Assembly (NCBI GenBank): GCA_019420525.1
Contig: JAHZHA010000027.1
Coordinates: 38,050 to 102,049 of the forward strand
From: Bacillota bacterium
GTDB taxonomy: Bacteria > Bacillota > Clostridia > Peptostreptococcales > Anaerovoracaceae
Reading direction: 5' to 3'
Length of the DNA stretch: 64,000 nt
Each line of letters opens with the position of its first letter. The first letter of the stretch is position 1. The position numbers and the translations under genes were made by a program. The notes under the pieces are model-generated. The model worked only from the letters and a program-made list of their open reading frames with translations, was not told where the DNA came from and searched no databases. Of the stretch, positions 428 to 56,560 are shown piece by piece.

Positions 428-2782
428 TTAATGTATCAGATGCAATCTCTCTGCTGCATCCTTCGCCTCGCTTCTGCGGCTGACTCCCAGTTTTCGCAGG
501 ATACTGCTGACATGTGTCTTCACTGTAGACAATTTGATATCCAAAATGTCACCGATCTCAGCATTACTTCTGCTGGCACAGATCAAGCGCAACACCTGCA
601 GTTCTGCCGCGGAAAGCGGTGCCGACATCTCTCTGCGCGGATGCAGATAGTCAGGATACATAGAAGCATGTTCTCTCGTAGCCATAATCAGTTTCTTTCG
701 GAATTTTTCATCGCCTTCCCATCCACACTCTTCCAATAGTGGAAGAACCGCCGTTCCATACTGACTGATCGTCCGGACAAAGCTGAAAGAATGAGCCGTA
801 TCCAGGGCAGTATATATTTCTTCGCGCCACTGGCTGTCTCCCAGTCGTTTCCAGGCTATCGCCGAAAGGATGTGAAGGTGTATACTGTCGATATACCTGG
901 CGCAGATTCTGCAGTAATTTCTCAGCGGTGACAATGTAATCAGCGCCTGCTCCTCCTCGCCCTGAACGAGTTCCACCATGGCTTGTGTAAAATACTGATA
1001 TCGTTTCATCACTCTCAAACGCTGCGGATTTCCAGGAGCCTTCTCTCTGTACCAGCTGTCTGCTGCCGCATCCTTACCTGTGAGCAGGTCAATCCTGCAC
1101 AGCATGGCATCGATATTTCCTAAAAAACGACGATATCCTTCCTTTTCAAAACGCTGCCTGAGATCCATCAGGCTTTTTCTCGCATCAGACGCCCTGCCCA
1201 GATCCGCCTGCATCCGCACCAGCAGTCCTGTAGCGGCGAATTCGATGTCCGGAGAACCTTCTCTGCGTATACGATCCATTTTCTGCAGCAGATCCATAAT
1301 CCTGTCGCGTATGTCTTCACCTTTTTCAAATTTACTTTCTGCCACTGCACAATCAGCCAGACACACACCGTCCTTTCCCAGAACCATCTCCACCGGAAGA
1401 CGCAGTGTTTTATAAAGCAGATCGTCTTTTCGGCTCCAGGGAGAAAAATCCTTGCCTCCGTTCATGAGACTAGGCAGGGTACTGGTGACGGACATGGGGG
1501 AAACACTGATCTCTTTACGGATCAGCATTCCACACACTTTTGGAAACAGCTCCACAGCGCTCTCAACACTGCGCTGAGGCAATGCAATATCAAGCCATAC
1601 CAGACGACTTTTCGCTTCGCGCACATCACTGTCAAAAGGTGTCCTGCTCTGTATAAATTTTTTCAGCGACCGGTACCAACGTTCTGATCCTTCATAATCC
1701 ATACAGATAGCACACAGCATACTCATCCCCTGCATCAGCGCAGGAGATGCCAGAATCTCTTTTTCCGGCAGAGCACGATAATACGGCTCCATTTCATCGT
1801 AATAACCCATTCCGGGATGAATCTCGGCATTTTTCACCAGAAGTTCCGAGATTTTGGTATAAGCTCCAATTCTGGAATAACACGCCAGCGCATTTCCGTA
1901 ATCTTCCTTCAGTTCATAGTACAGTCCTCCTCTGTTGTACAGATCGCGTTTCTGCTCTTCGCTGTACTCCTGCTCCATTTTCCAAAGAAGAAAGTCACGG
2001 AACAGCGGCCGGAAAGAATAGCTGTTCATTCGTTTCCGGACAAACATTGTCGTATCCCTCTGCAGGCGGTCCAGAACTTTGCCTGCCCGGCTGTTTCCGC
2101 TTATAATCCTGACCAGTTCCGAATCAAACTGCTCGAAAGGAGCAAGATCCAGAAGCATCCTGCGGTTAGAAAGAGAAAAACGCCTGTATACCATCTCCTC
2201 GAAATACAGAAAAATCTCCCGACGCACCTGATCTTTCGTCACCTCATTATAAGGTTCTCCTTTTTTCATATGATTCGCCAGAATACTCAGCGCCAGAGGA
2301 TATCCTTTCGTGTCTTCCAAAACGGATGTCAGGACAACATCAGAAACACAGATACCGTATTCTGAAAACAGGCGACTTACGCTTTCCCGATCCAGCGCAA
2401 GATCCCTCTCTCTGAAAACAGTCATCGCACCGGTGGTTTGAAAAGGAATCAGCCAGCCCGGAACCTCTCCCCGGCTGAGAAATACGAAACGCCTCTGCGG
2501 ATTTTCGCGGATCATTTTGCAGAGTATCTGCTGATCCTCTTCATCTGTAAGATACTGGAGATTATCTACAATCAGAGTCTTCCACTTGCCTGGCGAAGCC
2601 GGGAGAAGAAATCCGGAATCATCTGCCTGAATTATATATGTATATCTTCCCGACAGCAGGAAACGGGTTACCGTCGTTTTTCCAAAACCGCAGGGAGCAC
2701 TGAACATCAGGACGCGTCCACCCTTCAGAGCATCTTCGATCCGTTCTTTCAGTCCCTGTTTCAGAACTGTTTTTTTTCCCAT
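428..2782 (-). CDS. Large ATP-binding LuxR-family (LAL/MalT-like) transcriptional regulator
   Basis: N-terminal Walker A (SAPCGFGKTT), a long helical/TPR-like middle, and a C-terminal LuxR HTH (ELQVLRLICASRSNAEIGDILDIKLSTVKTHVSSILRKLGV). The RBS AGAGGAGG sits 7 nt before the ATG. Confidence 0.8.
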   Translation of the reverse strand: MGKKTVLKQGLKERIEDALKGGRVLMFSAPCGFGKTTVTRFLLSGRYTYIIQADDSGFLLPASPGKWKTLIVDNLQYLTDEEDQQILCKMIRENPQRRFVFLSRGEVPGWLIPFQTTGAMTVFRERDLALDRESVSRLFSEYGICVSDVVLTSVLEDTKGYPLALSILANHMKKGEPYNEVTKDQVRREIFLYFEEMVYRRFSLSNRRMLLDLAPFEQFDSELVRIISGNSRAGKVLDRLQRDTTMFVRKRMNSYSFRPLFRDFLLWKMEQEYSEEQKRDLYNRGGLYYELKEDYGNALACYSRIGAYTKISELLVKNAEIHPGMGYYDEMEPYYRALPEKEILASPALMQGMSMLCAICMDYEGSERWYRSLKKFIQSRTPFDSDVREAKSRLVWLDIALPQRSVESAVELFPKVCGMLIRKEISVSPMSVTSTLPSLMNGGKDFSPWSRKDDLLYKTLRLPVEMVLGKDGVCLADCAVAESKFEKGEDIRDRIMDLLQKMDRIRREGSPDIEFAATGLLVRMQADLGRASDARKSLMDLRQRFEKEGYRRFLGNIDAMLCRIDLLTGKDAAADSWYREKAPGNPQRLRVMKRYQYFTQAMVELVQGEEEQALITLSPLRNYCRICARYIDSIHLHILSAIAWKRLGDSQWREEIYTALDTAHSFSFVRTISQYGTAVLPLLEECGWEGDEKFRKKLIMATREHASMYPDYLHPRREMSAPLSAAELQVLRLICASRSNAEIGDILDIKLSTVKTHVSSILRKLGVSRRSEAKDAAERLHLIH

Positions 2783-2861: not shown

Positions 2862-4268
2862 TCACCTGATATTTATCTTTTCCCGGCGGATTTTCCCCCA
2901 GGAATACTTCTTTTTTCGGTACCCTATCAGAGAAGTGGCCCGTACCCAGGATAGAATGAAACGCAGACAGGACACTTCCAATGCGCACAGTCCCACAGCT
3001 TTCAGGATATCCCCCGGAGTCAGTTTCAGATCCACAGTCTGAATACGGGCGAAAAAGGCGGTCAGAGATAATACAGCGGAATAAATCACATAAATCGCAA
3101 AGAAAAGGACCATGAAAGGTACATTGATCAAGTCAATAGCAAAAGCCAGTATGACGGTCATAATCCCAAACAATTCAATGTAGGGTGAAAGCAGCTCGTA
3201 CAACAGAAAATAGAGATAAGAGATTAAACCGACCAATCCGTATTTTCGGTTTGCCAAAATCTGCCTGTGACGGCTCATAGATTCAAACAGGCCGATATGC
3301 CAGCGCCGACGCTGTTTGCACAGATCTTTCAGCGTTTCAGGCGCCTGCGTCCAGCAAACGGCATCCGTAGCATACCGAATCCGATAAGGAATATCGTGTT
3401 GGCGGCAAAAAACATGAAGTTTGACCACCAATTCCATATCTTCTCCTACCGTAGTGGGATCATATCCTCCTGCAGAAATCACTAAACTCTTTTTAAACAG
3501 ACCGAAAGCTCCGGAAATAATGATACTTCCGTTGAAACGGTCGAACAGAATTCTCGCTGCAAGAAAAGAACGATCATACTCCAATACTTGCATACATGGA
3601 ATAATTTTTTTTGGCATATGGTAGGAGATGACACGCCCGTTCCGTATCTCAGCGCCGTTACATGGACGCACAGCTCCACCTACTGCTACTACAGATCCGT
3701 CTTCTAGGACCGGTCTTACAATTTTTTCCATAGAATCGTGTTGCAGAACGGAATCCGCATCCATACATACAAAATATGGAAACCTTGAAATATTGATTCC
3801 CATATTCAGAGCGTCCGCCTTACCACCATTTTTCTTGCATACGAGAGTTATAGGGACCTTAAACTCCTGAGTCTCGAAAACTGCATGTTCTTGCTGGCAT
3901 GAAATCATTCTTCGAATCGGTCTTGCCAGCTGTCGCATATGAAAAGTATCCTGAATCAGCTGGGCTGTGCTGTCTGTTGAACCATCGTCCACAATGACGA
4001 TCTCATACAGATGGTAGTCTAAACTCAACAGGGAGCGAATGGTGGAAATAATTGTAACTTCTTCATTATACGCAGGAACAATTATCGTCACTGGCACATA
4101 ATACTCCTGCGGAAGTTCACTTTTCAGCATGTTCCGCTGCTTGAGGCGATACAGCGTCGAAGATCCCACCGTCACGGCCAGAAACAGAAAGGTAGCATAA
4201 CCCACCATATACAGAACGAAAAATATTCCGACATAATTGAAAAATTCTTTCAAAAAGTCCATCGTCAT
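2862..4268 (-). CDS. Processive family-2 glycosyltransferase (PgaC/IcaA/NodC-like beta-glycan synthase), polytopic membrane protein
   Basis: N-terminal TM helices, then VPAYNEE, DDGSTD, CMDAD (DxD) and QRRRW (QxxRW processivity motif), with C-terminal TM helices. The start overlaps the upstream gene's stop (ATGA). Confidence 0.8.
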   Translation of the reverse strand: MTMDFLKEFFNYVGIFFVLYMVGYATFLFLAVTVGSSTLYRLKQRNMLKSELPQEYYVPVTIIVPAYNEEVTIISTIRSLLSLDYHLYEIVIVDDGSTDSTAQLIQDTFHMRQLARPIRRMISCQQEHAVFETQEFKVPITLVCKKNGGKADALNMGINISRFPYFVCMDADSVLQHDSMEKIVRPVLEDGSVVAVGGAVRPCNGAEIRNGRVISYHMPKKIIPCMQVLEYDRSFLAARILFDRFNGSIIISGAFGLFKKSLVISAGGYDPTTVGEDMELVVKLHVFCRQHDIPYRIRYATDAVCWTQAPETLKDLCKQRRRWHIGLFESMSRHRQILANRKYGLVGLISYLYFLLYELLSPYIELFGIMTVILAFAIDLINVPFMVLFFAIYVIYSAVLSLTAFFARIQTVDLKLTPGDILKAVGLCALEVSCLRFILSWVRATSLIGYRKKKYSWGKIRREKINIR

Positions 4269-5386
4269 CTTACATTACCTTCTTTCTGCAGCTTTCCGGA
4301 TTCAATCTGATATTCCAGAATTTCCCTGGCATAGCGGTCTTCTCCTTCAATGATGTCTGTTAGGTCCTCACTACTCACATGTTGGGCCTCCAGACTGGCC
4401 GCGGCAGCGCAACGTACATACCAGTTGACACTGCAAAGGGCCGTTTTCAGCACTTCTATCGTCCTCGGATCCCGGTAAGCTGCCAGTGACGAAACACTCA
4501 CTGTAACGTATTCCCATCGAACGGGATCATCATCTTCAGCGAATTCCAAAAGGAGATCGAACGCCGGAGGATAACGATAGCGTCCGAAATAACGGATGGC
4601 AGCCAGAATAACCTCCTTATCCGCCTCATTTTCTTTCAGCAGACTCAGCATCTCCCTGGTATAGTCACCGCTCTGGAAACGGATATAATTCAGCAGAGCC
4701 AACTGAGTGCGGGGTGTAAACTTTCTGAGATTCTCCCAGATCAGAGTGATGAGCCGGCTGTGATCGCCCTGGTAATCCAAAAGCGTTTCTGTCAGGATTT
4801 TTTCGTGGAAAAAGACGGAATTCTGATCCTGAATCTTCAGTGCAAGGATGATATCTTTCTCGTTTCCGAAAGTACACAGAGCCTTCAGCACATTGACGCT
4901 GCAGTACAAATTGTCTTTTTCCATATAACCCAGCATCACTTCCTGCAGATTCCTTGCCGACAGATGTTCCGGCAGAATGTGTCTGGACAAGAAGAAAGAA
5001 AAATAGGCGGCCTGTGTATTTTCCTTATTCCGGTAGAAGCCGGCCAGCTGAAGGATGCATGGCTGCAGCTGGATTATATAATCCCGGACCGTACGACTTT
5101 TTTCTTCCCCGCTGTTTTCCGAAGAAAGTTCCTGCAGCATCCGGTCAAAGGCGATCAGATTCTTTATGTGTCGTAATTTTTTATGAAGATCGTAAAGATA
5201 TACTTCGTCGATTTTTTCTCCCCGGCATATATGCCTCAGCTGAATTTCCGCATTTTCACGGTATTTCCGCTGCCTCCTCTGCATGCGGGGTTCGCTGCCT
5301 TTCAGCAGAAGTGCGTATGCGACATTGAACAGAATCATGCTGACGCAGACAATTCCGTAGAAATATATCACTATTTCAACTCTCAT
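4265..5386 (-). CDS. Membrane-anchored HEAT/PBS-lyase-like repeat protein of unknown function
   Basis: N-terminal TM segment, then helical repeats including NWYVRCAAAASL (HEAT-like). RBS GGGGAGG. Translationally coupled to the GT2 gene. Confidence 0.55.
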   Translation of the reverse strand: MRVEIVIYFYGIVCVSMILFNVAYALLLKGSEPRMQRRQRKYRENAEIQLRHICRGEKIDEVYLYDLHKKLRHIKNLIAFDRMLQELSSENSGEEKSRTVRDYIIQLQPCILQLAGFYRNKENTQAAYFSFFLSRHILPEHLSARNLQEVMLGYMEKDNLYCSVNVLKALCTFGNEKDIILALKIQDQNSVFFHEKILTETLLDYQGDHSRLITLIWENLRKFTPRTQLALLNYIRFQSGDYTREMLSLLKENEADKEVILAAIRYFGRYRYPPAFDLLLEFAEDDDPVRWEYVTVSVSSLAAYRDPRTIEVLKTALCSVNWYVRCAAAASLEAQHVSSEDLTDIIEGEDRYAREILEYQIESGKLQKEGNVR

Positions 5387-5422
5387 GAAAAGCCTCCCCG
5401 CTTACGGCCGCCGAACTCTGCT

Positions 5423-7672
5423 TTATTTCAGACTGTTCCAGTAATCCCTGAGGATATAGTAGGACTCCTTCAGACGCTCATGATAAGTGACATTCTTTCC
5501 CCAGCCTTCCAGTCTGAAAAAAGACATCCTGACAGTCTCATCCTTTTCTGCTTCTGCAACTGCTCCCGCATATATCCTGTCGATTTCCAGATTCTCGATT
5601 CCGTAATTCTCATAGTAATCGTCATGAATCATCATCTCCGACGGATTCGAGAAATTCAACAGCTGCCACGGAATCCGGATCTCCGCGCCGTCTTCTGTAA
5701 AGCAGTAATCAGCAAGGGAATCGAATTCCGGCGATTCGGGATTGGCATTTCCGTAGCGTAGTTTCCCCGTCTCGTAACTCTCGCCGGTCACGACATTTTT
5801 GTCGGTCTTAGGGACAATCCCTCCTAGTTTTAACGCCAGATTAATATTCACGAAAACGGGGCTGTCTTTTGCCGGCGGATTGACAAAGGGATCCTCTAAA
5901 TAATATGATTGCCAGTAGATCTCTTTCAGCACCTCATAGCGCTCCTGCACCTGTACCCGGCTGTTTTCTCTGCCGCTGACGGTTATGACAAAGTCGCAGG
6001 CGCGGTCAAAGCGGATGCTGTAATTTTCACACAGCTTACTTCCCGACTCCGGTGTCGTGTCCAGCGGGATATAGAGAGTCTCCTTCTCCGGATCGAAGCC
6101 CTCCGCGTAAAAATACAGAAATTTTTCATCGTACTTCATGGAGAGCTTCAGCGTCCCCTCCTGCCAGACGAGATCGCTTTTCTTCCACTCCGACGGATCG
6201 CCGTCCACATAACATACGCTCTCTTCCTCCCCGGGATCGAAGGTCAGTAGACCAAAAAACTGCTCATTCGTCTGATAATCGCTCCAGTAAGGTGTCTTCG
6301 TCAAATCTATTGCATGAAGCGTGTTCCAGGTCCGTTTAAACCACTCGTCCTGCCAGGAAAACAGACAGCTGCCGGCGTTCATGATGTCCTGGTAACACTC
6401 GACGAGATACGTTCCCTGTTCTTCTTCCGAGACAAATCCCTGGCTGCGTCCGGTGTTTTCATCGGTCTGCGCTCTTCCCCTTCCCGTCGTAACTCCATAC
6501 TCAGAGATCACGACCGGAATATTGTGAAAATTGTTGATCGCTTTCAGATAAGCATAATACGTGTTGTATCTGCCGTTTTCGTCGTAATAATCCTCTTCTG
6601 TTAGATATTCGTGGACATTCGGTGCGTTCAGTAGGGAAACCCGATAATTTGTAGCTGCTGCCTGATTTTGACCGAAAATACGGTTCAGCTCCTCGTCGCT
6701 GTAAGCCAGGGCCTTACGCTCCGTCTGCAGATAATCCGGATAATATGCATAGATATGGTAAGATGCGAAATACCCGGACTCGAATTTTTCCGTAGGACGG
6801 ATATGCTCCACGTTGACCGCCGCATTTTTATAGCGGTGAGAAGTAGTCACCAGCGAATAGGAAAAGGGATCTGTCGTGGGCCAGTTGGAAAAGGCGATCA
6901 TCCGCTGTTCCCCGTATCGCTGACTCTCATAGGCGATCAGGGTATCTCCCAGCTGCGCCAGAACCGTCTCAAAGGGAGTGGCGTCAGCCGACGTTTCCAT
7001 ATAGTCTCCCTGCCAGGAAGTCTTGTCGTAATGATTCTGATTCGTGTAAGTCACGAGGCTCGCTTCCCACTCTACTCCCAGGATGTAGCCCAGAACCCAC
7101 CGGGATACGTCGTGACGGTAAAATCCCGATCCGTCTCCGTCGCGGCCCAGGAGAAACTTCTTTCCGTGGATAATGTCGATGATCGTCTTGCCGTCCTCGG
7201 TCATCTCCGGCAGAATTCCGTCATCATACGCGTCTTTATGAGAATTGTGGGAATAGTCGTCCACCCAGAGTCCGTGAATGAGCCACAGAGGCTCTTTTCC
7301 CTCTTCTTCCCGCTGCGTGTTGTATTCGTAAAAAGCGTTGTAAAAATCGTCGTGGTGAATCGTGTAGATCCGGATGGTATTTGCTCCCAGTTCCTGGATC
7401 ATTCCGAACCAGCGAAGGTAAGTCTCCTTGTCGATGGCAAAGTCAGTAGCCCACTCTCCCGGCATGCCGGCTCCCAGATCGACGCCTCTGATTTCGAAAG
7501 GCTCGTAGCTTCCGTCTCGTTCCATGTAGATGGTGTCGCTGTCAGTCTTCATAAAGGCAGTCACCTGACCGCCGGATAAAAAAGCCGGATAGATACCCAG
7601 AGCGTAATACGCATACCAGACTGCGGCCGCCATCAGCACCGCCAGGCTGACGCCGATGATAAATTTTTTCAT
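5423..7672 (-). CDS. Membrane-anchored extracytoplasmic TIM-barrel glycoside-hydrolase-like protein (clan GH-A-like)
   Basis: N-terminal signal anchor. RGVDLG...GANTIRIY (beta-strand/NxxR-like) and PVVISEYGVTTG (nucleophile-like hhSEYG) motifs typical of clan GH-A. RBS GGAGGAG. Confidence 0.5.
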   Translation of the reverse strand: MKKFIIGVSLAVLMAAAVWYAYYALGIYPAFLSGGQVTAFMKTDSDTIYMERDGSYEPFEIRGVDLGAGMPGEWATDFAIDKETYLRWFGMIQELGANTIRIYTIHHDDFYNAFYEYNTQREEEGKEPLWLIHGLWVDDYSHNSHKDAYDDGILPEMTEDGKTIIDIIHGKKFLLGRDGDGSGFYRHDVSRWVLGYILGVEWEASLVTYTNQNHYDKTSWQGDYMETSADATPFETVLAQLGDTLIAYESQRYGEQRMIAFSNWPTTDPFSYSLVTTSHRYKNAAVNVEHIRPTEKFESGYFASYHIYAYYPDYLQTERKALAYSDEELNRIFGQNQAAATNYRVSLLNAPNVHEYLTEEDYYDENGRYNTYYAYLKAINNFHNIPVVISEYGVTTGRGRAQTDENTGRSQGFVSEEEQGTYLVECYQDIMNAGSCLFSWQDEWFKRTWNTLHAIDLTKTPYWSDYQTNEQFFGLLTFDPGEEESVCYVDGDPSEWKKSDLVWQEGTLKLSMKYDEKFLYFYAEGFDPEKETLYIPLDTTPESGSKLCENYSIRFDRACDFVITVSGRENSRVQVQERYEVLKEIYWQSYYLEDPFVNPPAKDSPVFVNINLALKLGGIVPKTDKNVVTGESYETGKLRYGNANPESPEFDSLADYCFTEDGAEIRIPWQLLNFSNPSEMMIHDDYYENYGIENLEIDRIYAGAVAEAEKDETVRMSFFRLEGWGKNVTYHERLKESYYILRDYWNSLK

Positions 7673-7694
7673 ATCTCAGTCTCCTCCGGATGAA

Positions 7695-9173
7695 TCAGTG
7701 ATCGTAAACCTTATTACGGGACGGATGACAGTACTGGCGCAGGGAATGAATATTATCATCCAGCCAGTCTCCCCGCTCACACAGCCATTCCTTCAGCTGC
7801 CGGACAGCCTCATCCTGGCTGTAGACATTGCGTGAGACGGGTGTCATAGGTTCCCACTGGGTCATAGCTTCCTTCCATTTCTGATTATTGCGCTCCAGAG
7901 CCGGACCGAGAAATTCCAGAGTCTCGTCGATATAACTCATCAGGTATTCTTCCGACAGCACCGTGCTGCGCAGCTCTTCGTAGCGCTTCAGGATCCGCTC
8001 CACGAAATTCTCCGATTTACAGAGCATAAGATACAGATTTTGATCTACCATTACAAAGTCGTACGGAGGCAGCGGATCGTCGGGATAATTGTCGCAGGAA
8101 TTATTGAAGTCCCAGACTGCCATTTTATATTTTCCGGACATATCCTTGTAGATATAAGTGGAATACCGGCCGGCGTCCGCATTGATCGAAAATTCGTTGA
8201 TCAGAAAGTAATCGACAAAACTTTCTACGTCGATATAATTCCAGTAGCCGTACTCGTCGGTATCGTAATCGTACGAGTAGAGCGCTTTTTCGAATTCGGC
8301 GTAATCCAGTTCGATCTCCTGGCGCATCTCCTCCGTCAGATTGGCGCGCTTCGGATAGCGGATCAGAATATCGGTGCGCAGCGTCAGCATGCGTTCCAGA
8401 TAGGAGTAGATATCCCGGATGCTTCCCAGATTTTCTTCCGTGGTCCGGTCTCCCCGCAGCAGATAGCCGGAGATTTTCGTATTCTGTTCCGAATCGCTGA
8501 GATTGAGCCTGCAGTTTTCCCCGTCTGTAATCGTTTCGATCATCAGATAGAGGCCTCTGTATTCTCCGTTCAGAATCACCTCGCAGTAGCGCACATTCGG
8601 CGCCCACTCCATGATCTCTCCGGAAATGTTATACCACATATAGTTTCTTACGAGAGATTTGTCCAGATAAGGTCCATACAACACCCACTCGTTATGGGCA
8701 GACATGCCCATGACCTCGGCGGGGGCATCTTCCCCTTTTTCGTTCACGAATTTCAGCTGGTAAGGGCTTTTCTCAAAATAGCGCGACGCATGACCTCTGA
8801 TGCGGATCTCCGTCTCCGTCACTAGAGCGGCCTGGTCCGAGGGATGATTGTTCCGGTCACTGTTATCGATGACAGAAAGGCTGGCGTTGATGACGTCTCT
8901 GCCGTCCGCTGCCAGCGAATTGATCGATTCTCCGAACGCATCTCGTTGCCCTGTGACCGCCCCTGGGATCTCCTGCCCCCGGGTATCTATGATGACCAGC
9001 GGAAGATGTGTACATAGCTCGCTGCCGTCGCAGTCGCATCCGGAGTCGGGCTGCCGGGCCGTCAGATGCTGATGAACGCGGTTATGTGTTTCCTCACCGC
9101 TCAATACGATAAATACCAGAAGGAGAAAAAGCATTCCGCAGAGAGCCAGCACAGATGTAACTCGATATTTCAT
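7695..9173 (-). CDS. CotH kinase-family protein with N-terminal signal/TM segment
   Basis: The CotH signature region RYCEVILNGEYRGLYLMIE matches the conserved V.LNGEYWGLY..E motif of CotH atypical kinases. RBS AAAGAGG. Confidence 0.7.
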   Translation of the reverse strand: MKYRVTSVLALCGMLFLLLVFIVLSGEETHNRVHQHLTARQPDSGCDCDGSELCTHLPLVIIDTRGQEIPGAVTGQRDAFGESINSLAADGRDVINASLSVIDNSDRNNHPSDQAALVTETEIRIRGHASRYFEKSPYQLKFVNEKGEDAPAEVMGMSAHNEWVLYGPYLDKSLVRNYMWYNISGEIMEWAPNVRYCEVILNGEYRGLYLMIETITDGENCRLNLSDSEQNTKISGYLLRGDRTTEENLGSIRDIYSYLERMLTLRTDILIRYPKRANLTEEMRQEIELDYAEFEKALYSYDYDTDEYGYWNYIDVESFVDYFLINEFSINADAGRYSTYIYKDMSGKYKMAVWDFNNSCDNYPDDPLPPYDFVMVDQNLYLMLCKSENFVERILKRYEELRSTVLSEEYLMSYIDETLEFLGPALERNNQKWKEAMTQWEPMTPVSRNVYSQDEAVRQLKEWLCERGDWLDDNIHSLRQYCHPSRNKVYDH

Positions 9174-9202
9174 GAAGTACCTCTTTTTCTGGGATAAACA
9201 AA

Positions 9203-9895
9203 TCAGCTGCTGATCTCGTCATTCTGCATCACAAGATTACAGTATTCGATATTTCCTATATCATAAATAGCATCCGTAATACTTTTTTCTCCAGAGTTCC
9301 GCCTGTTTCTGTCCATCTTATTTTTTGCACGCCGGCTCAGCTCGTAGATAAATTCCACGCTGTCTTCCGTCGTATTTTTTACTCTCAGGGCAGCTTTTCT
9401 GTCATAGTACCGGAAGATCAACGCTTCCACTGTTTCCTCATTCATCCTGACGGTGCGTATGATCAGTAAGAGACGGTCATCGTTTTTAATCCTTCCGAAA
9501 ATCAGGAAAATCAGAAAAGTAAAAGCGCTCCCTGTACCCGCCGCCAGAAAATCACCGGCGCCGCAGCATATACCGGCCACAATGGCCCAGAAAATATAGA
9601 TCGTATCCCGTGAATCCTTAATCGCCGTCCGGAAGCGAACGATGGACAGAGCACCCACCATTCCCAGCGACAATGCGATATTATTTCCGATAACGATCAT
9701 GACTGCTGTGGTTATCGTCGTGAGTGCAATCAGAGAAACGTTGAATTTCTTACTATAAATACTCCCCTCATGAGAAAGCATATAGGACAGATAGATAAAA
9801 AACGCGATCACTGTACCTGCCAACATTCTCAGAATGATAATCCTGGGTTCCAGCTGCCCGCTGTTTTCCAGTAAATCCAACAACATACTTCTCAT
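9203..9895 (-). CDS. Polytopic membrane protein, probable DUF4956-family (partner of VTC/CotH)
   Basis: Multiple TM helices then a charged C-terminal domain. The ORF-track start (GTG at 9937) overlaps the VTC gene. ATG at 9895 (MRSMLLDLLENSG) has RBS AAAGAGAAGGTG and is preferred. Confidence 0.5.
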   Translation of the reverse strand: MRSMLLDLLENSGQLEPRIIILRMLAGTVIAFFIYLSYMLSHEGSIYSKKFNVSLIALTTITTAVMIVIGNNIALSLGMVGALSIVRFRTAIKDSRDTIYIFWAIVAGICCGAGDFLAAGTGSAFTFLIFLIFGRIKNDDRLLLIIRTVRMNEETVEALIFRYYDRKAALRVKNTTEDSVEFIYELSRRAKNKMDRNRRNSGEKSITDAIYDIGNIEYCNLVMQNDEISS

Positions 9896-9911
9896 AATTG
9901 ACACCTTCTCT

Positions 9912-10607
9912 TTACAAACTAAATTTAAGACTGGCACTTCTTCCCAGGCAATATTTGCTCACCGACAGCGCTGAACGGTCGGCATCGTTAATCAGAGCTT
10001 TTATGTAACTGAGAAGAAAACCGTTGTATTTCACTTCCAGAACCCCGTTGAAAGGATCCATCACAGGATACAGATTGAGCTGCGGAGAAAAAAGTTCAAA
10101 ACAGCACTCGGTAGCCCGGATATCCCTGTCAAAAGTGATGCGTATCTTATTTTCTCTGGCGACGAAAGCTGTACGCCTGTACTCGATGACTGTCTTGGGC
10201 CGGTAGCATTTCCGGTGCATGAGGCCATAGCACTCCGCCGCAAAAGGATTGCTGTATCTCAGTAGATTATCGTAACGTCCCGCAGCCATCTCCTCAGCGT
10301 CTTTCCGGCTTATGCGCAGAGAACGTTTTTTCTGATATGCTCCCTCTTTCTGCTTCATTTCCAGCATGGCGAATTCCGAAGCGGGATCATAAATCCGAAG
10401 ACGGATTTTCCGGCGGAGTTCGATACCGTCTAATTTTTCATGATAATCACTGTCGTATAGAGTGTCAAAGTAAAGTGAGCGAATAGAATATCCCTGTGAT
10501 CCATTGTGTGCATCCTGAATCATTACCTTGCTCAGCTTTGCCGACAGCCTGTCCATGTCCGCCACTGTCATGAAATATTTTTTCTCCTGCCGATATACCT
10601 CGTTCAA
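9912..10607 (-). CDS. VTC-domain (polyphosphate-polymerase-like / triphosphate-tunnel) protein
   Basis: N-terminus ...YRQEKKYF... and overall composition match bacterial VTC/CYTH-like domain proteins. TTG start with RBS GGAGGTG at 7 nt. First gene after a 5'UTR hairpin. Confidence 0.6.
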   Translation of the reverse strand: MNEVYRQEKKYFMTVADMDRLSAKLSKVMIQDAHNGSQGYSIRSLYFDTLYDSDYHEKLDGIELRRKIRLRIYDPASEFAMLEMKQKEGAYQKKRSLRISRKDAEEMAAGRYDNLLRYSNPFAAECYGLMHRKCYRPKTVIEYRRTAFVARENKIRITFDRDIRATECCFELFSPQLNLYPVMDPFNGVLEVKYNGFLLSYIKALINDADRSALSVSKYCLGRSASLKFSL

Positions 10608-10711: not shown

Positions 10712-11074
10712 TCAATCCAACGCCAGTAAGTTCTCTGTCGCATGGTGAAACAGGTTCTCCAACTCCGGCATCGCCGCTGCTGCTGCTGTCAGATCTCCTC
10801 TGCGAAGATCTTCTGTCATGATGCTAATCTTCTGGTAAAGCTCTTTCAGGGATAGATTTCCCGTAAGCCCTTTGAGAGCATGAGCTGCTTCAAATGCCTG
10901 AGAGATGTTCTGTTCCTCCATCGCCTGTTTTAGACGGAAAAAATTATTATCTTCTGTAAAACGCAGAAGCATTTTAAGCATCAGTGTTTCGTTATTCATA
11001 AATCGGGCCAGCGCATCTTCGATATCGACTCCTGCTTCCTCTAAAAGTTTTTTTTCATCTCTTCCATCACTCAA
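10712..11074 (-). CDS. Histidine phosphotransfer (Hpt) protein
   Basis: AHALKGLTGNLSL contains the HxxKG phospho-His motif. The start is ambiguous: TTG at 11074 (overlapping the upstream gene by 8 nt) or ATG at 10999. The ORF-track start at 11161 is an over-extension into the upstream gene. Confidence 0.6.
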   Translation of the reverse strand: MSDGRDEKKLLEEAGVDIEDALARFMNNETLMLKMLLRFTEDNNFFRLKQAMEEQNISQAFEAAHALKGLTGNLSLKELYQKISIMTEDLRRGDLTAAAAAMPELENLFHHATENLLALD

Positions 11075-12176
11075 ACACTCCTTCTGTTTTTCGGTAAAAC
11101 CGGCGCAGCATTGGCTCTTCCTTTCTGAAATATTCCAACAGCTCAGGATTAAAAACCCCACACTGCCCTTCCAAAATCATTTGCATAGCGGTGTCAGCCG
11201 GCATAGCATCCTTATAGCACCTTTTGCTCACCAGAGCATCGTACACATCCGTCAATGAAACGATCTGCGTCCAGATAGGAATTTCATCACCTGCCAGCTG
11301 ATCAGGATAACCACCTCCGTCCCAGCGTTCATGATGATGAAGAGCGATATCATAGGCATAGTGATAAGCAGAATGCTCTCTCATTTGAGGTATCTGTGAC
11401 AGAAGTTCTGCGCCCCTTACAGTATGAGACTTCATGAGCTCATACTCTTCCGGGGTCAATCTTCCCTTTTTATTAAGAATGGCATCCGGAATCGAAATTT
11501 TCCCCACATCATGAGTGATAGCCCCCATTCCGATCAGCATGATCTCATTTTCCGTAAGACCTTCTCCCAGAGGTGTTTCTCTCAGAAGGTGGCAGGTGAT
11601 ATCGTGAATCCGCCGAACATGCTCACCGGATTCATCACTTCGGAATTCAATAGCTGCAGACAGCGCTTCAACCATTCCCATGCTCATATCCGCCATCTGC
11701 TGGGTCTGAATCAGCAACTGATCTCTCTGCCGTTCCACTTCAGCTCCGAGCCTTTGCCTTGCACGAAAAAGTTCGACCACGGAATTAACCCGCCGCCGGA
11801 CCACATAAGGTACCACCGGCTTTAATATGAAATCCATAACACCCAGATCATAAGCCTCTCTCATGGTAGAATCAGCCGCATCAGCGGTAATCAGAAAAAC
11901 GGGAATACTGCCGGTCATCCCCCGTTTCTGAAGTTCGCGGAGCATCTCTATCCCGTCGATCTTCGGCATCATCACGTCAAGCAAAATAGCACAAATATTA
12001 TTTTGGTGTTCCAGCGCCGCAGCGAGACCTGCTTCACCGTCCGCTGCCTCTAAAATTCCGTATTCCGAATCAAATATATTCGCAAGAATCATCCGATTGA
12101 TTTCCTCATCATCTACGATGAGAATATTTTCTTTTCTGGAATCTTCCAATTTCAAAGCCTCCTGTCTGTCACTCAC
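11067..12176 (-). CDS. Response regulator with HD-GYP domain (c-di-GMP phosphodiesterase, RpfG-like)
   Basis: Receiver ILIVDDEE...DVMMPKIDG plus the HD-GYP signature HHERWDGGGYP. GTG start overlapping the kinase stop (GTGA). An alternative TTG at 12149 has GGAGG 8 nt upstream. Confidence 0.8.
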   Translation of the reverse strand: MSDRQEALKLEDSRKENILIVDDEEINRMILANIFDSEYGILEAADGEAGLAAALEHQNNICAILLDVMMPKIDGIEMLRELQKRGMTGSIPVFLITADAADSTMREAYDLGVMDFILKPVVPYVVRRRVNSVVELFRARQRLGAEVERQRDQLLIQTQQMADMSMGMVEALSAAIEFRSDESGEHVRRIHDITCHLLRETPLGEGLTENEIMLIGMGAITHDVGKISIPDAILNKKGRLTPEEYELMKSHTVRGAELLSQIPQMREHSAYHYAYDIALHHHERWDGGGYPDQLAGDEIPIWTQIVSLTDVYDALVSKRCYKDAMPADTAMQMILEGQCGVFNPELLEYFRKEEPMLRRFYRKTEGVFE

Positions 12177-14737
12177 ATTTCATCCTGCCCGGATGGTTTC
12201 CGAGCACTTCTGCGTTCCTCCATCAATCTTATGAGAGTCTGCTTCAATATCTCACTGTTTATCGGTTTGGATACATGATCGTCTATCCCGGCCTGAGCAG
12301 TCCGGGCAATGTCTTCAGGAGACACATTGGCAGTCACCGCGACAATCGGTACACTGCCGGCATCCGCTCTGTCCAAATGCCGGATAATCGCTGAAGCCTG
12401 ACAGCCATCCATCACAGGCATCTGCATATCCATCAGAATTGCATCTACAGAATAGGACTGCGCGGATTTAAATACCTGGACAGCTTCTTTTCCATTTTCA
12501 GCCGTTATCACATCTGCCCCAAACTGCCGTAGAATCTCAGTGATAATCTCTCTGTTGAGATCATTATCTTCTGCCACCAAGACAGTACGGCCGGTCAGAT
12601 CTGCACTATATTCTTCTGTCCGTATACTGACTTTATCCTCTTCTATATCGTAACGTTCACATACCTCCAGAGGAAGTGTCACCGTAAAGCGCGAACCTTT
12701 CCCCAATGTACTTTCTACCGTAACCTCTCCGTTCATCTGCTGGACCAAACTCTTGACGATAGGCATTCCCAGACCGGTACCGGACACCGGATGTGAACGG
12801 AAAACTGTCTCTCGCACATAAGGATCAAAAAGGTGCTCCAAAAAACTCTCGGACATGCCGATACCCGTGTCTTCTACCACAATCTGATATTTACTATGCT
12901 GTTGAAAATCAAACTGTCTTGCCTTAAGACGGATAGAATCTCCGGAATTGCTGTATTTTACAGCATTTGAAAGAAGGTTATTAAGGATCTGAATAATCTT
13001 ATTTTCATCGCCGATTACAACCTCATTCTGAAAATCTATGCTGGTTTCCAGATGTTTTCCCTGCTCGTCTATTCGATCATGAAAAAGATCTGCCACCTCA
13101 TTCAACAGCTTTTTTAAATTAAATTCCTTCTGATCCAGGCTATCTTTTACGGCTTCTGAACGTGAAAGTTCCAGAATATCATTGATCAGTTCCAAAAGCT
13201 GTTTGCCTGCAAACTCAATTTTTCCCAGATATTCTCCGACTTTGCCTATATTACCTTCTTTTTGACTTTTTTCAGCCAATTCACAGCATCCGATGATAGC
13301 GTTGAGAGGTGTTCGCATATCGTGGGACATCCTGCTGAAAAATGCCAGTTTTTCTTCCGTGCCTTTACGGGCTGCATCCAGTGCATCCTGCAGAAGAATT
13401 GTCGCCTTCAGTTCACGCCTTTTTTCTTCGTCCACATCTCTGAAACACAATATTACTTCATCGGGAGCTAGTTTTTTGTTATAAAGAGTACGAATATTAA
13501 CCCATCGGTATGTATCTCCAAATTTTCTCTGATAATCGCCACCGTAATCTGTCACGCCATCTTCGATCCGCTGCCGGATATTCTGCAGTGAAAAATTTTC
13601 TTTAAAAGCCTGATATACTTCTGGCTTCACCAAAAGCTGCATAGTATCTACAAAAAAAGAATAATCTCCGTTTTCCGGAATTCTTTTTCCAAGATCCTGA
13701 TACGTTTTAATTCCTTCATAGGTACCTGACTCTACATTAATTCTGAAAACAGCATGAAATGATTCTCCCAATATGTGAACTGTATCATCTGCCTTTTTCA
13801 ACACACGGCTTTTAACCGCATCATGTATTGTCATAAAGGCCAGCAGAAGAAACAATATGAGGGCCAGACCTGACATCAGATAAATAGTGGCATTCGGTTC
13901 TCCCATCAAAATAGACCTGGAAGGGATCATCATAATCGCAGTCCATCCATTATCCATTACTCTGTGATAGATCCCGCAGGAAGACCCGTTCAAATCTTCC
14001 ACAAAAGCATCATAATCCAGTAAAGAACCGTCAGAAATACCTTCCATTATATTATCAACATACCCCTGCAGCTGATCTGCATCAACTACTCCTGCAGCAT
14101 TTGCATAGATAAGAAGCCCTCCCTCATCGCACAAAAAATATGAACAACCATCCGGCATCGTCTGTGCAGACTGGTGCAGATCAGGATTCTGAACAAAGAT
14201 GTCCATAGCCACCACATTGCCGTCATGCTTTAAAGCTTGGGAAACAGTCAGAACTCGCTGACCGGTCACAGCATCTTTATATACGTCTCCCGACACAATT
14301 TGTCCCTGCGCTTCCACAGCTTGTAAATACCATGCAGTCTCACTGTAGAGATAATCTTCGTCGCCTTCCCAGGGATTTGCTGCTACAATTTTTCCATCAA
14401 TTACCGCATAAATATCCACCAAGTCCTCGCCGACAACCCCCGTAAACTTGTGATAGTAACCTTCCAGCCACTGCTGAATTTCCTCAAAGTCACTTCCATT
14501 TTCCAACATTTCATCGATGTATTGACCGATAACTATGAGGTTTCCTTCGAGATCAGAAAGATTCGTTTCTTCTTCTTTCGCATAACTGTAAGTCAAAGCC
14601 ATTCCCAGATTCTGAGCATTTTCCAGCAATTTATTGCGTACCAGAAAAATGGAGAAGATCAGAACAAATGATACGATCAAAAGAAGAGATATATTCAAAA
14701 CAACATTATGCCTGTAAAAAAAATTTCGTTTTCTCAT
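12173..14737 (-). CDS. Hybrid sensor histidine kinase (TM - extracytoplasmic Cache-like sensor - TM - PAS-like - HisKA - HATPase - receiver)
   Basis: H-box SHDMRTPLNAI, ATPase G-boxes (DTGIGM, GTGLGM) and a C-terminal receiver LVAEDNDLNREI...DMQMPVMDG. ATG at 14737 is preferred over TTG at 14743. Confidence 0.8.
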   Translation of the reverse strand: MRKRNFFYRHNVVLNISLLLIVSFVLIFSIFLVRNKLLENAQNLGMALTYSYAKEEETNLSDLEGNLIVIGQYIDEMLENGSDFEEIQQWLEGYYHKFTGVVGEDLVDIYAVIDGKIVAANPWEGDEDYLYSETAWYLQAVEAQGQIVSGDVYKDAVTGQRVLTVSQALKHDGNVVAMDIFVQNPDLHQSAQTMPDGCSYFLCDEGGLLIYANAAGVVDADQLQGYVDNIMEGISDGSLLDYDAFVEDLNGSSCGIYHRVMDNGWTAIMMIPSRSILMGEPNATIYLMSGLALILFLLLAFMTIHDAVKSRVLKKADDTVHILGESFHAVFRINVESGTYEGIKTYQDLGKRIPENGDYSFFVDTMQLLVKPEVYQAFKENFSLQNIRQRIEDGVTDYGGDYQRKFGDTYRWVNIRTLYNKKLAPDEVILCFRDVDEEKRRELKATILLQDALDAARKGTEEKLAFFSRMSHDMRTPLNAIIGCCELAEKSQKEGNIGKVGEYLGKIEFAGKQLLELINDILELSRSEAVKDSLDQKEFNLKKLLNEVADLFHDRIDEQGKHLETSIDFQNEVVIGDENKIIQILNNLLSNAVKYSNSGDSIRLKARQFDFQQHSKYQIVVEDTGIGMSESFLEHLFDPYVRETVFRSHPVSGTGLGMPIVKSLVQQMNGEVTVESTLGKGSRFTVTLPLEVCERYDIEEDKVSIRTEEYSADLTGRTVLVAEDNDLNREIITEILRQFGADVITAENGKEAVQVFKSAQSYSVDAILMDMQMPVMDGCQASAIIRHLDRADAGSVPIVAVTANVSPEDIARTAQAGIDDHVSKPINSEILKQTLIRLMEERRSARKPSGQDEM

Positions 14738-14778
14738 GTACAAACACCTATCCAGGAATTTTCATCGTTTCTGCGGAT

Positions 14779-18947: not shown

Positions 18948-19119
18948 CCTCCCCCTTCCTTTTTTCTCAGCATTATCTTCTGCGACCGGATTTCTCTTCT
19001 CTCCGAAAGGAAAATTCCGGTTCCGCATCAATTTTACTACACATCTTTTTACACTGTAAATCCGTCCAAAGTATGATTCCTGCCGTTTTCCGGCCCGAAA
19101 AAAGAAAAATTTCTTTTTT

Positions 19120-19368
19120 TCACCTTTGATCGCTGACGGACGCGCTGCTGTTGCCGGCCTCCAGAGCGGAAACGGGGTCATACGTCGCCTCCTGACTGCC
19201 GTCTCCACCGGGAAGCGCACCTTCCTTCACATACAGATTATATGTGTCCGGACCGGCGCTTCCGGCAGGACCCGTGACTCCTGTCGCTCCTGTCGGGCCC
19301 GGAATTTGACACATCTGTATGCATGGTATACAGTAGTTTATATAAAATCCGTTTTGATCATAATGCAT
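19120..19368 (-). CDS. Small Cys-containing protein with a short collagen-like G-X-Y tract
   Basis: RBS GGAGG 7 nt before ATG (MHYDQNGFYINYCIPCIQMCQIP...). Six consecutive GXY triplets (GPTGATGVTGPAGSAGP). Lies directly upstream of, and co-directional with, the SLH protein gene. Confidence 0.4.
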   Translation of the reverse strand: MHYDQNGFYINYCIPCIQMCQIPGPTGATGVTGPAGSAGPDTYNLYVKEGALPGGDGSQEATYDPVSALEAGNSSASVSDQR

Positions 19369-19542: not shown

Positions 19543-19709
19543 TTTATAAATTTTTTGCACTGCATTGCGTCCTGCTTCAGGATGCGAGATCAACAGTACA
19601 AACTGAGCAGGCGATAGACCGATAGGTTTATGGGGCCGGGCCGCTGATGCGGCAGCAGATTGTCATTAACATCTGTGGGACAGTTGTATGTTCCGCAGAT
19701 GTTTTTTTA
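19543..19709 (+). promoter_or_regulatory. Structured 5' leader with intrinsic terminator (attenuator) upstream of the CDF exporter; candidate metal (NiCo/czcD-type) riboswitch
   Basis: An 8-bp hairpin GCGUCCUG-CUU-CAGGAUGC. Further GC stems, then the terminator ACATCTG...CAGATGT + TTTTTTT at 19669-19709, about 90 nt before the start codon at 19796. Confidence 0.35.
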
Positions 19710-19795
19710 TTCATTCGAAGAACAGATTATCTCGAAAAGTGCTCATGAGAGAATTATCACTGCCATCATATGTGACAAAACAGGAGGATACCTTT

Positions 19796-20839
19796 ATGGC
19801 AACCAGACATGAAAAAACAAATCCGTCCGCTTCCCGGCCAGTCGACGAAACAGCGGTTATCAGGAATCTGTCGCTAGTCAGCGTGATTGGAAATGCGATA
19901 CTCTCGGGATTCAAAATGTTTGCCGGAATTGTCGGCAATTCCGGTGCAATGATTTCAGATGCAATCCACTCTTTCTCCGATGTACTTACCACACTGATCG
20001 CCTGGATTGGTGTGAAGGCATCAAAAAGGGACGCTGACAGTTCCCATCCGTATGGTCATGAACGTTTGGAATGTGTGGCATCTCTGCTCCTGGGCCTGGT
20101 ACTGATGGTGACAGGTATCGGTGTCGGTAAAGTAGGTGTGGAAAATATCCTGTCAGGAAATTACGAAACCCTTACCATTCCCGGTTCCATCGCTCTTGCA
20201 GCGGCTATTATCTCCATCATAGGCAAAGAAGCGATGTACTGGTACACGCGTTACTATGCAAAACTGATCAATTCAGCCGCCTTCATGGCGGATGCCTGGC
20301 ATCATCGTTCCGACGCCTTTTCTTCCATCGGATCTCTGATCGGTATCGGCGGGGCGATGCTGGGATTTCCGGTGATGGATTCCGCAGCAAGCGTCGTGAT
20401 CTGCATCTTTATCATGAAAGTTGCCTATGATATTACAAAAGATGCACTTGTCAAAATGCTGGATACTTCCTGCGGTGCAGATTACGAGAAAAAACTGACG
20501 GAAGATATACTGGCGCAAGAGGATGTACTTCGTGTCGATATGCTCCGGTCCAGAATGTTCGGCAACAAAGTCTATATCGATCTGGAAATATCTGTGGACG
20601 GCGATAAATCCCTCTGGGAGGCTCATGAAGTGGCTGAACGCGTCCATAGAAATGTTGAGCAGTGTTTTTCCGACGTCAAGCACATTATGATTCATGTGAA
20701 TCCGATTCATTGTGCATCAAATGAACAGCGACTGCCTGCTGACAATGATCCCGGTCGGCAAATTGACAATTTACACAGAAGTACAGCGCAAACGAAGATG
20801 ACGGATAAAAACAGCAGCAAGCGCAATGCTTTTGTGTAA
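19796..20839 (+). CDS. Cation diffusion facilitator (CDF) family divalent-metal efflux transporter
   Basis: Six TM helices and a cytoplasmic C-terminal domain. The HPYGHERLE motif is typical of CzcD/FieF-like CDFs. RBS AGGAGG 8 nt before ATG (MATRHEK...). The ORF-track start at 19688 is an over-extension through the leader terminator. Confidence 0.75.
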   Translation: MATRHEKTNPSASRPVDETAVIRNLSLVSVIGNAILSGFKMFAGIVGNSGAMISDAIHSFSDVLTTLIAWIGVKASKRDADSSHPYGHERLECVASLLLGLVLMVTGIGVGKVGVENILSGNYETLTIPGSIALAAAIISIIGKEAMYWYTRYYAKLINSAAFMADAWHHRSDAFSSIGSLIGIGGAMLGFPVMDSAASVVICIFIMKVAYDITKDALVKMLDTSCGADYEKKLTEDILAQEDVLRVDMLRSRMFGNKVYIDLEISVDGDKSLWEAHEVAERVHRNVEQCFSDVKHIMIHVNPIHCASNEQRLPADNDPGRQIDNLHRSTAQTKMTDKNSSKRNAFV

Positions 20840-20918: not shown

Positions 20919-21007
20919 TGGCGGAGAAGGTGGGATTCGAACCCACGTGCCCCGGAGGGCAACCGCATTTCGAGTGCGGCTCGTTATGACCACTTCGATA
21001 CTTCTCC
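20919..21007 (-). tRNA. tRNA-Ser (anticodon CGA), 89 nt with long variable arm, CCA encoded
   Basis: Cloverleaf built by hand: acceptor GGAGAAG/CTTCTCC, anticodon loop CUCGAAA, long variable arm, T-loop GGTTCGAATCC. Confidence 0.85.
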
Positions 21008-56387: not shown

Positions 56388-56463
56388 TGGTGCCCAGACT
56401 CGGAATCGAACCAAGGACACGGGGATTTTCAGTCCCCTGCTCTACCTACTGAGCTATCTGGGC
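56388..56463 (-). tRNA. tRNA-Phe (GAA), copy 1
   Basis: GCCCAGATAGCTCAGTAGGTAGAGCAGGGGACTGAAAATCCCC...TTCGATTCC...GGGCACCA; anticodon loop CUGAAAA. Confidence 0.85.
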
Positions 56464-56466
56464 ATG

Positions 56467-56541
56467 TGGAGCGGAAGACGAGATTCGAACTCGCGACCCT
56501 CGCCTTGGCAAGGCGATGCTCTACCACTGAGCCACTTCCGC
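56467..56541 (-). tRNA. tRNA-Gly (GCC)
   Basis: GCGGAAGTGGCTCAGTGGTAGAGC...; anticodon loop UUGCCAA; CCA encoded. Confidence 0.85.
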
Positions 56542-56560
56542 ATATATGAAATTTTAAAAA

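Follow-up and report, generated by a model that had tools for sequence, protein, structure and literature searches.

A conserved six-gene operon of gut Clostridia joins a predicted processive glycan synthase to a VTC/DUF4956/CotH module

In a 64,000-nucleotide (nt) stretch of the genome of a Bacillota bacterium of the Anaerovoracaceae (GenBank assembly GCA_019420525.1, contig JAHZHA010000027.1, positions 38,050 to 102,049 of the forward strand; hereafter the window), six co-directional minus-strand open reading frames (ORFs) occupy positions 2862-10607. In transcription order, they encode a VTC-domain protein, a DUF4956 membrane protein, a CotH-family protein, a glycoside hydrolase-like (GH-like) protein, a HEAT-repeat protein and a family-2 glycosyltransferase (GT2) (Table 1). 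The coordinates are exactly those given in an earlier reading of the same DNA made without database searches (the sequence-only reading), every motif quoted there was found in the sequence, and its assignments of the VTC, DUF4956, CotH, HEAT and GT2 proteins were confirmed by Pfam.

The genes of this cassette are separated by tiny gaps, as had been described, with the individual figures each one nucleotide smaller (29, 22 and 36 nt rather than 30, 23 and 37 nt), and the ATGA overlap of the HEAT and GT2 genes at 4265/4268 is genuine. The overlap reported between the VTC and DUF4956 genes (9912/9937) is an artefact of ORF extension, since the longest ORF had been taken, and we dropped it in favour of the ATG at 9895. 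This codon lies 16 nt past the VTC stop; because it is preceded by a GAAGGTG ribosome-binding site and yields a protein of the same length as the homologues, it is the likely start of DUF4956. No intrinsic terminator was found inside the cassette in a terminator scan, promoter and terminator scans gave no clear unit boundaries for the operon, and a search with Rfam yielded neither a riboswitch nor any other RNA element in its vicinity.

Table 1. Genes of the cassette, in transcription order, and of its surroundings (positions in the window; aa, amino acids).
Feature	Position	Strand	Remarks
VTC gene	9912-10607	(-)	231 aa; TTG start after a GGAGG site
DUF4956 gene	9203-9895	(-)	230 aa from ATG 9895; maximal ORF to 9937
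CotH gene	7695-9173	(-)	492 aa
GH-like gene	5423-7672	(-)	749 aa
HEAT gene	4265-5386	(-)	373 aa
GT2 gene	2862-4268	(-)	468 aa
S-layer-homology (SLH) domain protein	16014-19220	(-)	1068 aa; just upstream of the kinase gene
Hybrid histidine kinase, dCache sensor	12173-14743	(-)	Pfam; upstream of VTC
Response regulator with HD-GYP	11067-12176	(-)	Pfam
Hpt protein	10712-11161	(-)	Pfam
MalT-like LuxR-family regulator	428-2782	(-)	TPR_MalT and GerE domains; MalT NCBIfam E 8.5e-34

The GH-like protein was used to scan one genome per species and had relatives in at least 596 of these genomes; the best 80 of the 596 or more, at 50-72% identity and with one locus per species, were surveyed as loci. The cassette is complete in 65/80 loci, with order and strand identical in all 65, and 13 of the 15 incomplete loci are broken by contig ends. 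Median intergenic gaps across the surveyed loci range from -4 to 22 nt. Most host species belong to the Clostridia of the gut (Oscillospiraceae, Lachnospiraceae and Erysipelotrichaceae, with the genera Hungatella, Blautia and Roseburia), Holdemania being a further host, and the whole cassette was also found on a 67-kb plasmid of Planococcus maritimus (NZ_CP059541) at 26-50% identity. The sequence-only reading had staked its call on the VTC/DUF4956/CotH triad being syntenic with a GT2 synthase elsewhere; this holds decisively, in all 65 complete loci and in the plasmid copy. These data indicate that the six genes are one inherited unit and a real operon.

Two surveyed loci look decayed, one (L051) without GT2 despite 10 kb of downstream sequence and the other (L054) without VTC and with a partial DUF4956. 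An annotated Qat anti-phage gene, qatC, is located downstream of the cassette on the Planococcus plasmid, at a distance of about 4 kb or three genes (L083, 15019-18105).

The GT2 protein has the features of a processive membrane-embedded synthase, namely a GT-A domain with D, DxD, ED and QxxRW motifs and flanking transmembrane (TM) helices. It matched the Pfam GT2 families (E 1e-26), its best NCBIfam match was PgaC_IcaA (TIGR03937; E 3e-44, 151.6 bits, below the equivalog cutoff of 422.3), and it aligned to BcsA over residues 54-408 and, in a profile search, to chitin synthase. The motifs DDGSTD, DAD, GEDME and QRRRW are invariant among homologues, the last of them presumably the chitin-synthase form of the QxxRW motif. 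In the predicted topology, TM1 precedes a cytoplasmic GT-A domain, which is followed by three to four TM helices at the C-terminus, and motifs and TM layout together resemble those of BcsA and PgaC. GT2 is predicted to be a processive polymerase and exporter. The HEAT protein (HEAT_2, E 4e-15 in Pfam) has a single TM helix at its N-terminus and then a basic stretch, suggesting that its repeats face the cytoplasm. It is poorly conserved, with 12/373 positions invariant, as is expected of a scaffold, and its sole relatives in the PDB, designed alphaRep/PBS-HEAT proteins, give no function for it. We predict that it is a cytoplasmic scaffold or regulator of the synthase.

The GH-like protein matched no family above threshold in Pfam or NCBIfam, and a sequence search of the PDB gave nothing usable. 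Its AlphaFold model (pLDDT 72.5) comprises a (beta/alpha)8 barrel at residues ~40-480 and a C-terminal beta-sandwich at ~490-720. In the barrel, E201 comes after strand 4 and E391 stands at the end of strand 7, and the two residues are invariant in 79 sequences. A barrel with catalytic Glu residues after strands 4 and 7 is the hallmark of clan GH-A, and the TIM-barrel call of the sequence-only reading is thus borne out by the model and the invariant Glu pair. An N-terminal anchor is present in 78/79 sequences, and the ectodomain is acidic. Its match to GH72 (PF03198) scored 19.9 bits, short of the cutoff of 25.9, and covered residues 56-108 alone; the score of the fused relative P0245 is 27.7 bits. 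The GH-like proteins form a large family without annotation, which counted 575 clusters at E<=1e-30 in a set of 1.84 billion representatives. In two relatives (P0269 and P0322), HEAT repeats are fused behind the GH-like domain, pointing to a physical tie between the GH-like and HEAT proteins. We predict that the GH-like protein is a membrane-anchored extracellular retaining glycanase or transglycosylase that acts on the polymer. We also considered it as a divergent member of DUF4832/DUF4874 and rejected this, as no Pfam match appeared at E<=10. Other relatives, of ~1,000-1,100 aa, carry N-terminal extensions of 320-670 aa without a Pfam domain.

Genes for polysaccharide-deacetylase lipoproteins of family CE4 are inserted on the same strand in 8/80 loci (L019, L064, L030, L072, L080, L054, L044 and L023), at four positions: between VTC and DUF4956, between DUF4956 and CotH, after GT2 and before VTC. 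The CE4 protein of L064 also carries three SLH repeats. P0245 is a fusion of a GH-like domain with a CE4 domain, a bifunctional layout resembling that of PgaB and PelA. NELoc-2, a Clostridium perfringens locus that we compare with the cassette below, also includes a polysaccharide deacetylase, found in most isolates (PMC11677781). The CE4 insertions, the P0245 fusion, the NELoc-2 deacetylase and the PgaC_IcaA match together suggest an N-acetylhexosamine polymer. The product is most likely a beta-linked polymer based on N-acetylhexosamine, similar to poly-N-acetylglucosamine (PNAG) or chitin. The earlier view that the locus builds an extracellular polymer fits the topology, the GH-A fold and the CE4 evidence.

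The first protein of the triad, VTC, matched PF09359 (E 2.8e-44, 151.9 bits against a cutoff of 23, profile positions 2-232 of 235), and its profile matched yeast Vtc4 (3g3q) at E 1e-4, or at E 1.3e-11 with a broader profile. Residues K10, R69, R71, K85, Y143, R145 and E191 align with Vtc4 K200, R264, R266, K281, Y359, R361 and E426, and S217-K218 was matched to S457-K458 by spacing only. Mutation of any of these Vtc4 residues (K200, R264, R266, K281, Y359, R361, E426, S457 and K458) lowers polyphosphate (polyP), and K458 distinguishes the active Vtc4 from the inactive Vtc2/3 (bioRxiv 10.1101/2023.01.27.525886). All nine positions are invariant in 71 sequences, even among VTC proteins that are just 27-31% identical. 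The protein is soluble, with no TM segment, and a hydrophobic N-terminus or signal sequence occurs in 0/71 sequences. VTC is predicted to be a cytoplasmic polyphosphate polymerase.

DUF4956 matched PF16316 (E 5e-11 and 43 bits, with the cutoff at 30.6), as do its homologues, and is predicted to consist of about five TM helices and a soluble C-terminal alpha/beta domain. Between helices 3 and 4 lies an invariant basic loop, VRFRTAIKDSRD, with the motif GALSIVRFRTAIKDSRDTxYxFW. Against MgtC/SapB/YhiD (PF02308), it scored 16.6 bits, with a cutoff of 31.4 (E 0.011), and one homologue has a precomputed PF02308 match; no match to DUF202/VTC1 appeared even at E<=10. We propose that DUF4956 is a partner or conduit for VTC. 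CotH matched PF08757 (E 6e-54, 184 bits) and aligned to Bacillus cereus CotH (5jd9), with D333 and D355 at the NFD and WDYD motifs of the latter. These two residues correspond to B. subtilis D228 and D251, the catalytic / metal-binding Asp residues (PMC7821199), and are invariant in 76 sequences. An export signal, either an N-terminal anchor or a lipoprotein signal, is present in 75/76 cassette copies and in 34/37 distant triad copies, and the ectodomain is acidic. The signal argues for a site of action different from that of the kinases acting on spore-coat substrates, and CotH is predicted to be an extracellular atypical kinase. With VTC soluble, DUF4956 polytopic and CotH exported, the triad would span the membrane, with the polymerase inside and the kinase outside.

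Metagenomes were scanned with a distant VTC profile for triads outside the cassette. VTC and DUF4956 adjoin in almost all of the ~160 loci with room for both, DUF4956 lying directly downstream of VTC wherever there is room, except in L112, where CotH lies between them, and in the CE4-bearing L019 and L064. A directly adjacent CotH accompanies the pair in each of the 65 complete cassettes and in 14/18 non-redundant distant loci that have flanks of 2.5 kb or more on either side. The neighbours of the distant triads include PelG (6/31 non-redundant loci), PelF-type DUF3492/GT4, DUF4832/DUF4874, GT2, Bac_transf, GtrA, NAGPA phosphodiester glycosidase and EAL/GGDEF proteins; the triad lies within a heteropolysaccharide locus on the Pseudobutyrivibrio plasmid pNP95 (L084) and follows a GT2 gene in Nonomuraea. 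This placement beside unrelated glycan systems suggests a portable module that is attached to several glycan machineries. Hidden Markov models (HMMs) of the GH-like, HEAT and synthase-type GT2 proteins found no match in the distant triad loci, the GH-like set being specific, together with HEAT and GT2, to the six-gene cassette.

In four metagenome loci (L088, L089, L092 and L094), two CotH paralogues stand in tandem ahead of VTC-DUF4956, and both have a signal sequence of their own. The NAGPA family cleaves sugar-phosphodiester bonds; a glycosidase of this type lies near the triad on pNP95 and in one metagenome locus, which hints at sugar-phosphate chemistry there.

The sequence-only reading knew of no system combining these parts. 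By annotation, however, the gene list is that of NELoc-2 of C. perfringens, whose genes (CP4_0460-0468) were listed by Lepp et al. 2010 (PMC2879425) and which was present in 23/41 isolates in a 2024 survey (PMC11677781). NELoc-2 encodes a VTC protein, a membrane protein annotated as tubulin/FtsZ, a CotH of 497 aa and a hypothetical protein of 685 aa, followed by a HEAT protein of 377 aa and a glycosyltransferase of 466 aa annotated as a chitin synthase (373 and 468 aa for the last two in the window), a match in families and order that is one of annotation and protein sizes. The two loci differ in that NELoc-2 has a duplicated VTC/membrane-protein pair split by a resolvase, and a sigma/anti-sigma pair, whereas the window has a relay of a histidine kinase, an HD-GYP response regulator and Hpt.

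Nor is the combination of the triad with a GH-like gene new, this having been described as an accessory set of Pel loci (PMC7112168; PMC12345266). Genes for CotH, polyphosphate polymerase, DUF4956 and DUF4832 accompany Gram-positive Pel loci (Whitfield et al. 2020, PMC7112168); in Streptococcus intermedius, the set is SIR_1591-1594, and its DUF4832 protein is an active hydrolase (PMC12345266). Like the cassette, these loci combine the triad with an anchored TIM-barrel glycoside hydrolase that follows it, and a secreted CotH, at a synthase-dependent exopolysaccharide locus; among our metagenome loci, both CotH-VTC-DUF4956-DUF4832 and the triad followed by EAL/GGDEF, two arrangements described before, were seen. 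Different from the cassette, Pel uses PelF (GT4), PelG, PelD and PelE and makes an alpha-1,4-linked polymer of N-acetylgalactosamine and galactosamine. The window instead has a QRRRW GT2, a HEAT protein and a GH-A enzyme for which HMM comparison shows no relation to DUF4832, and its order is VTC-DUF4956-CotH rather than CotH-VTC-DUF4956; PelF (GT4/DUF3492), PelG, PelD and PelE had no Pfam match among the ten window genes in or beside the cassette. A 2025 paper reported that synteny of the triad was not found outside Pel loci (PMC12345266). The window and its relatives contradict this statement: what is new here is a synthase-dependent exopolysaccharide locus with the CotH/VTC/DUF4956 module, which had formerly been tied to Pel alone. 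For the function of bacterial VTC-domain or DUF4956 proteins, we found Pel and NELoc-2 papers only.

The synthase module resembles PgaABCD and IcaADBC, in which the membrane-embedded processive GT2 finds its best curated match, in its extracellular hydrolase-like TIM barrel and in the CE4 deacetylase, comparable to PgaB and IcaB, of the eight insertions and the one fusion protein; the adjacent cyclic di-GMP (c-di-GMP) signalling genes are a further likeness to Pga. It differs in lacking, in the window, PgaD/IcaD, the PgaA porin and a deacetylase, in a GT2 below the equivalog cutoff and in a hydrolase that is GH-A-like and not GH153, and the phosphate triad has no counterpart in either system. 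For VTC, the comparison is with yeast Vtc4/Vtc3/Vtc1, which couples cytoplasmic polyP synthesis to membrane transit (bioRxiv 10.1101/2023.01.27.525886). The seven alignable polymerase residues are kept, the enzyme is paired with a polytopic membrane protein, and the topology would suit synthesis on one side and delivery on the other. The window VTC, however, has no SPX domain, fused TM domain or any second Pfam domain, DUF4956 is no homologue of the Vtc1-type channel, an exported kinase is added, and export is hypothetical. CotH belongs to the same Pfam family as the Bacillus enzyme and has the same catalytic Asp pair, but CotB and CotG are the substrates of the Bacillus enzyme, which works within the mother cell, whereas the triad CotH is exported and sits in glycan loci.

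The cassette is best explained as a mobile six-gene synthase-dependent exopolysaccharide operon of two modules, GT2/HEAT/GH-like and VTC/DUF4956/CotH. For its action, we tentatively favour, at somewhat less than an even chance, a beta-glycan synthase system in which polyP made within the cell would serve to phospho-modify the product or matrix on the outside. The QRRRW GT2 would polymerise and extrude a beta-linked, probably N-acetylglucosamine-based polymer, the HEAT protein would scaffold or regulate the synthase from the cytoplasmic side, and the anchored GH-A enzyme may trim, release or transglycosylate the polymer once this is outside. VTC, the soluble tunnel enzyme, would make polyP from ATP at the inner membrane face, DUF4956 would dock VTC and pass the polyP chain or phosphoryl groups across the membrane, and the exported CotH would draw on that supply when phosphorylating the polymer or the proteins of matrix and wall. 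The outcome would be an anionic, phosphate-bearing matrix, and a phosphorylated or polyphosphate-decorated polymer is also what the sequence-only reading proposed. The gene content, its conservation and the retained catalytic residues are directly seen in the cassette, and the topology is predicted; from there we infer the identity of the polymer, the synthesis and export of polyP and the donor and acceptor of CotH. The phosphate model draws mainly on two arguments: the polymerase and kinase sites are intact, and the inside/membrane/outside layout is conserved.

Several points weigh against this model. In S. intermedius, deletion of DUF4956 raised Pel, deletion of cotH lowered it and the VTC mutant was silent, while the DUF4956 and cotH deletions both reduced aggregation in sputum medium (PMC12345266). 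These Pel phenotypes of the triad mutants are modest and non-parallel, and a simple linear triad pathway would not predict them. We found no paper on a bacterial VTC-domain protein making polyphosphate, and to our knowledge the characterised CotH enzymes are ATP-dependent protein Ser kinases, a polyP donor or glycan acceptor being without precedent. DUF4956 is not homologous to VTC channel subunits, its sole weak relative is MgtC, and its AlphaFold model, built on a shallow alignment, is unusable (pLDDT 45). As for the polymer, the 64-kb window holds no CE4 gene, leaving its cassette without a deacetylase, and no known PNAG or chitin hydrolase family was among the top fold matches of the GH-A domain.

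The S. intermedius phenotypes can be read differently: that the triad merely tunes the output of the GT2/HEAT/GH-like polymer set. CotH would then phosphorylate the exposed synthase complex, the GH-like enzyme or wall proteins with external ATP, and cytoplasmic polyP would be a phosphate or energy signal sensed by the ACT-like domain of DUF4956. In line with this, the mutants shifted Pel both ways and none abolished it, the VTC mutant being silent (PMC12345266), DUF4956 resembles MgtC, a regulator and not a channel, and both the authors of PMC7112168 and a 2024 preprint favoured regulation and cytoplasmic polyP. However, a purely regulatory triad gives no account of why polymerase, membrane protein and exported kinase are inherited jointly beside three unrelated glycan systems, it leaves the extracellular kinase without a phosphoryl donor, and the fact that each of the polymerase residues is strictly conserved points to catalysis more than to sensing. 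We place this account on the unlikely side.

A narrower version of the phosphate model, which we consider doubtful as it stands, is that VTC and DUF4956 form a bacterial polyP synthase-translocase that feeds CotH and is functionally analogous to the eukaryotic VTC complex, though its membrane subunit is unrelated; bacteria would attach it as a portable module to different exopolysaccharide machines. The exported polyP would be the phosphoryl donor or the grafted group for the extracellular CotH. The same topology argument for export can serve a third account, in which VTC and DUF4956 secrete free polyP and CotH is an unrelated surface protein kinase. The polyP would cross-link, or trap cations for, a partly deacetylated cationic polymer, like extracellular DNA for Pel, and the triad does accompany actually or potentially cationic polymers (Pel and the CE4-bearing cassettes). 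We judge this improbable: 72/80 cassette loci, the window included, have no deacetylase, indicating that the polymer need not be cationic, and the adjacency of CotH to VTC/DUF4956 in the 65 complete and in 14/18 distant loci suggests a shared task.

Still less probable, to the point of being remote, is that the operon serves not a biofilm matrix but the making and phosphorylation of a layer of the spore or exosporium, or else of a secondary wall polymer. The spore coat is where CotH is best known (PMC7821199), many of the host lineages are Clostridia that form spores, the window has the gene of an SLH-domain protein just upstream, and one inserted CE4 protein carries SLH repeats. The cassette or triad nevertheless also occurs in genera not known to sporulate, namely on the Planococcus plasmid and in streptococci and bifidobacteria (PMC7112168), CotH and the GH-like protein have signals of the Sec export type and not features of mother-cell targeting, and c-di-GMP signalling genes are adjacent. 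That six independent units merely happen to be neighbours has virtually no chance of being true and is already refuted by the synteny survey, in which order and strand are kept in 65/65 complete loci across many Clostridia families and on a Bacilli plasmid, with median gaps of only -4 to 22 nt.

Upstream of the VTC gene, the genes of the hybrid histidine kinase, the HD-GYP response regulator and Hpt (Table 1) form an order that is repeated, up to and including VTC, in two other loci (L003 and L016), and the 104-nt gap before VTC contains no terminator-like site. A homologue of the HD-GYP response regulator occurs in 14/80 loci and lies directly upstream of the cassette in the closest relatives; in Pseudoflavonifractor, GGDEF and GGDEF-EAL genes border the cassette. 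The operon is probably under lineage-specific c-di-GMP control through the adjacent relay. A strong terminator with a 14-bp stem at 15999-15966 (-), after the SLH protein gene and upstream of the kinase gene, is probably the 5' boundary of a transcription unit running from the histidine kinase to GT2. As listed, the Hpt ORF starts at a GTG, encodes 149 aa and shares 95 nt with the response-regulator gene; Hpt homologues have ~118 aa, which makes an internal TTG start near 11074 more likely.

Downstream of GT2, the LuxR-family gene lies on the same strand, as had been described, across a gap of 79 nt (80 in the sequence-only reading), and it does not travel with the cassette. A LuxR/MalT homologue was found beside the cassette in 0/82 related loci, and we therefore rejected this gene as a member of the system. 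Elsewhere in the window, a nickel/cobalt (NiCo) riboswitch (86 bits) at 19593-19685 (+) stands immediately upstream of a cation-efflux (CDF) transporter gene at 19688-20839 (+), seven tRNA genes lie within ~730 nt at 56391-57121 (-), and an isolated long tRNA lies at 20922-21007 (-).

The cassette is found in at least 596 species-level genomes, mostly of gut Clostridia, and by annotation it is the chromosomal NELoc-2, which is associated with necrotic-enteritis strains of C. perfringens. The published claim of Pel-only CotH/VTC/DUF4956 synteny needs correcting, and a concrete hypothesis can now be offered for two orphan families, the bacterial VTC-domain proteins and DUF4956, and for the exported CotH kinases. 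If our reading of the operon is true, it would represent an unrecognised type of synthase-dependent exopolysaccharide in Gram-positive anaerobes. If polyP is indeed made and exported, this would be a third bacterial route of polyP synthesis besides PPK1 and PPK2 and would bear on the host effects of microbial polyP in the gut. Should VTC and DUF4956 act as a synthase-translocase, phosphorylation of a polysaccharide or matrix would be powered outside the cell without external ATP.

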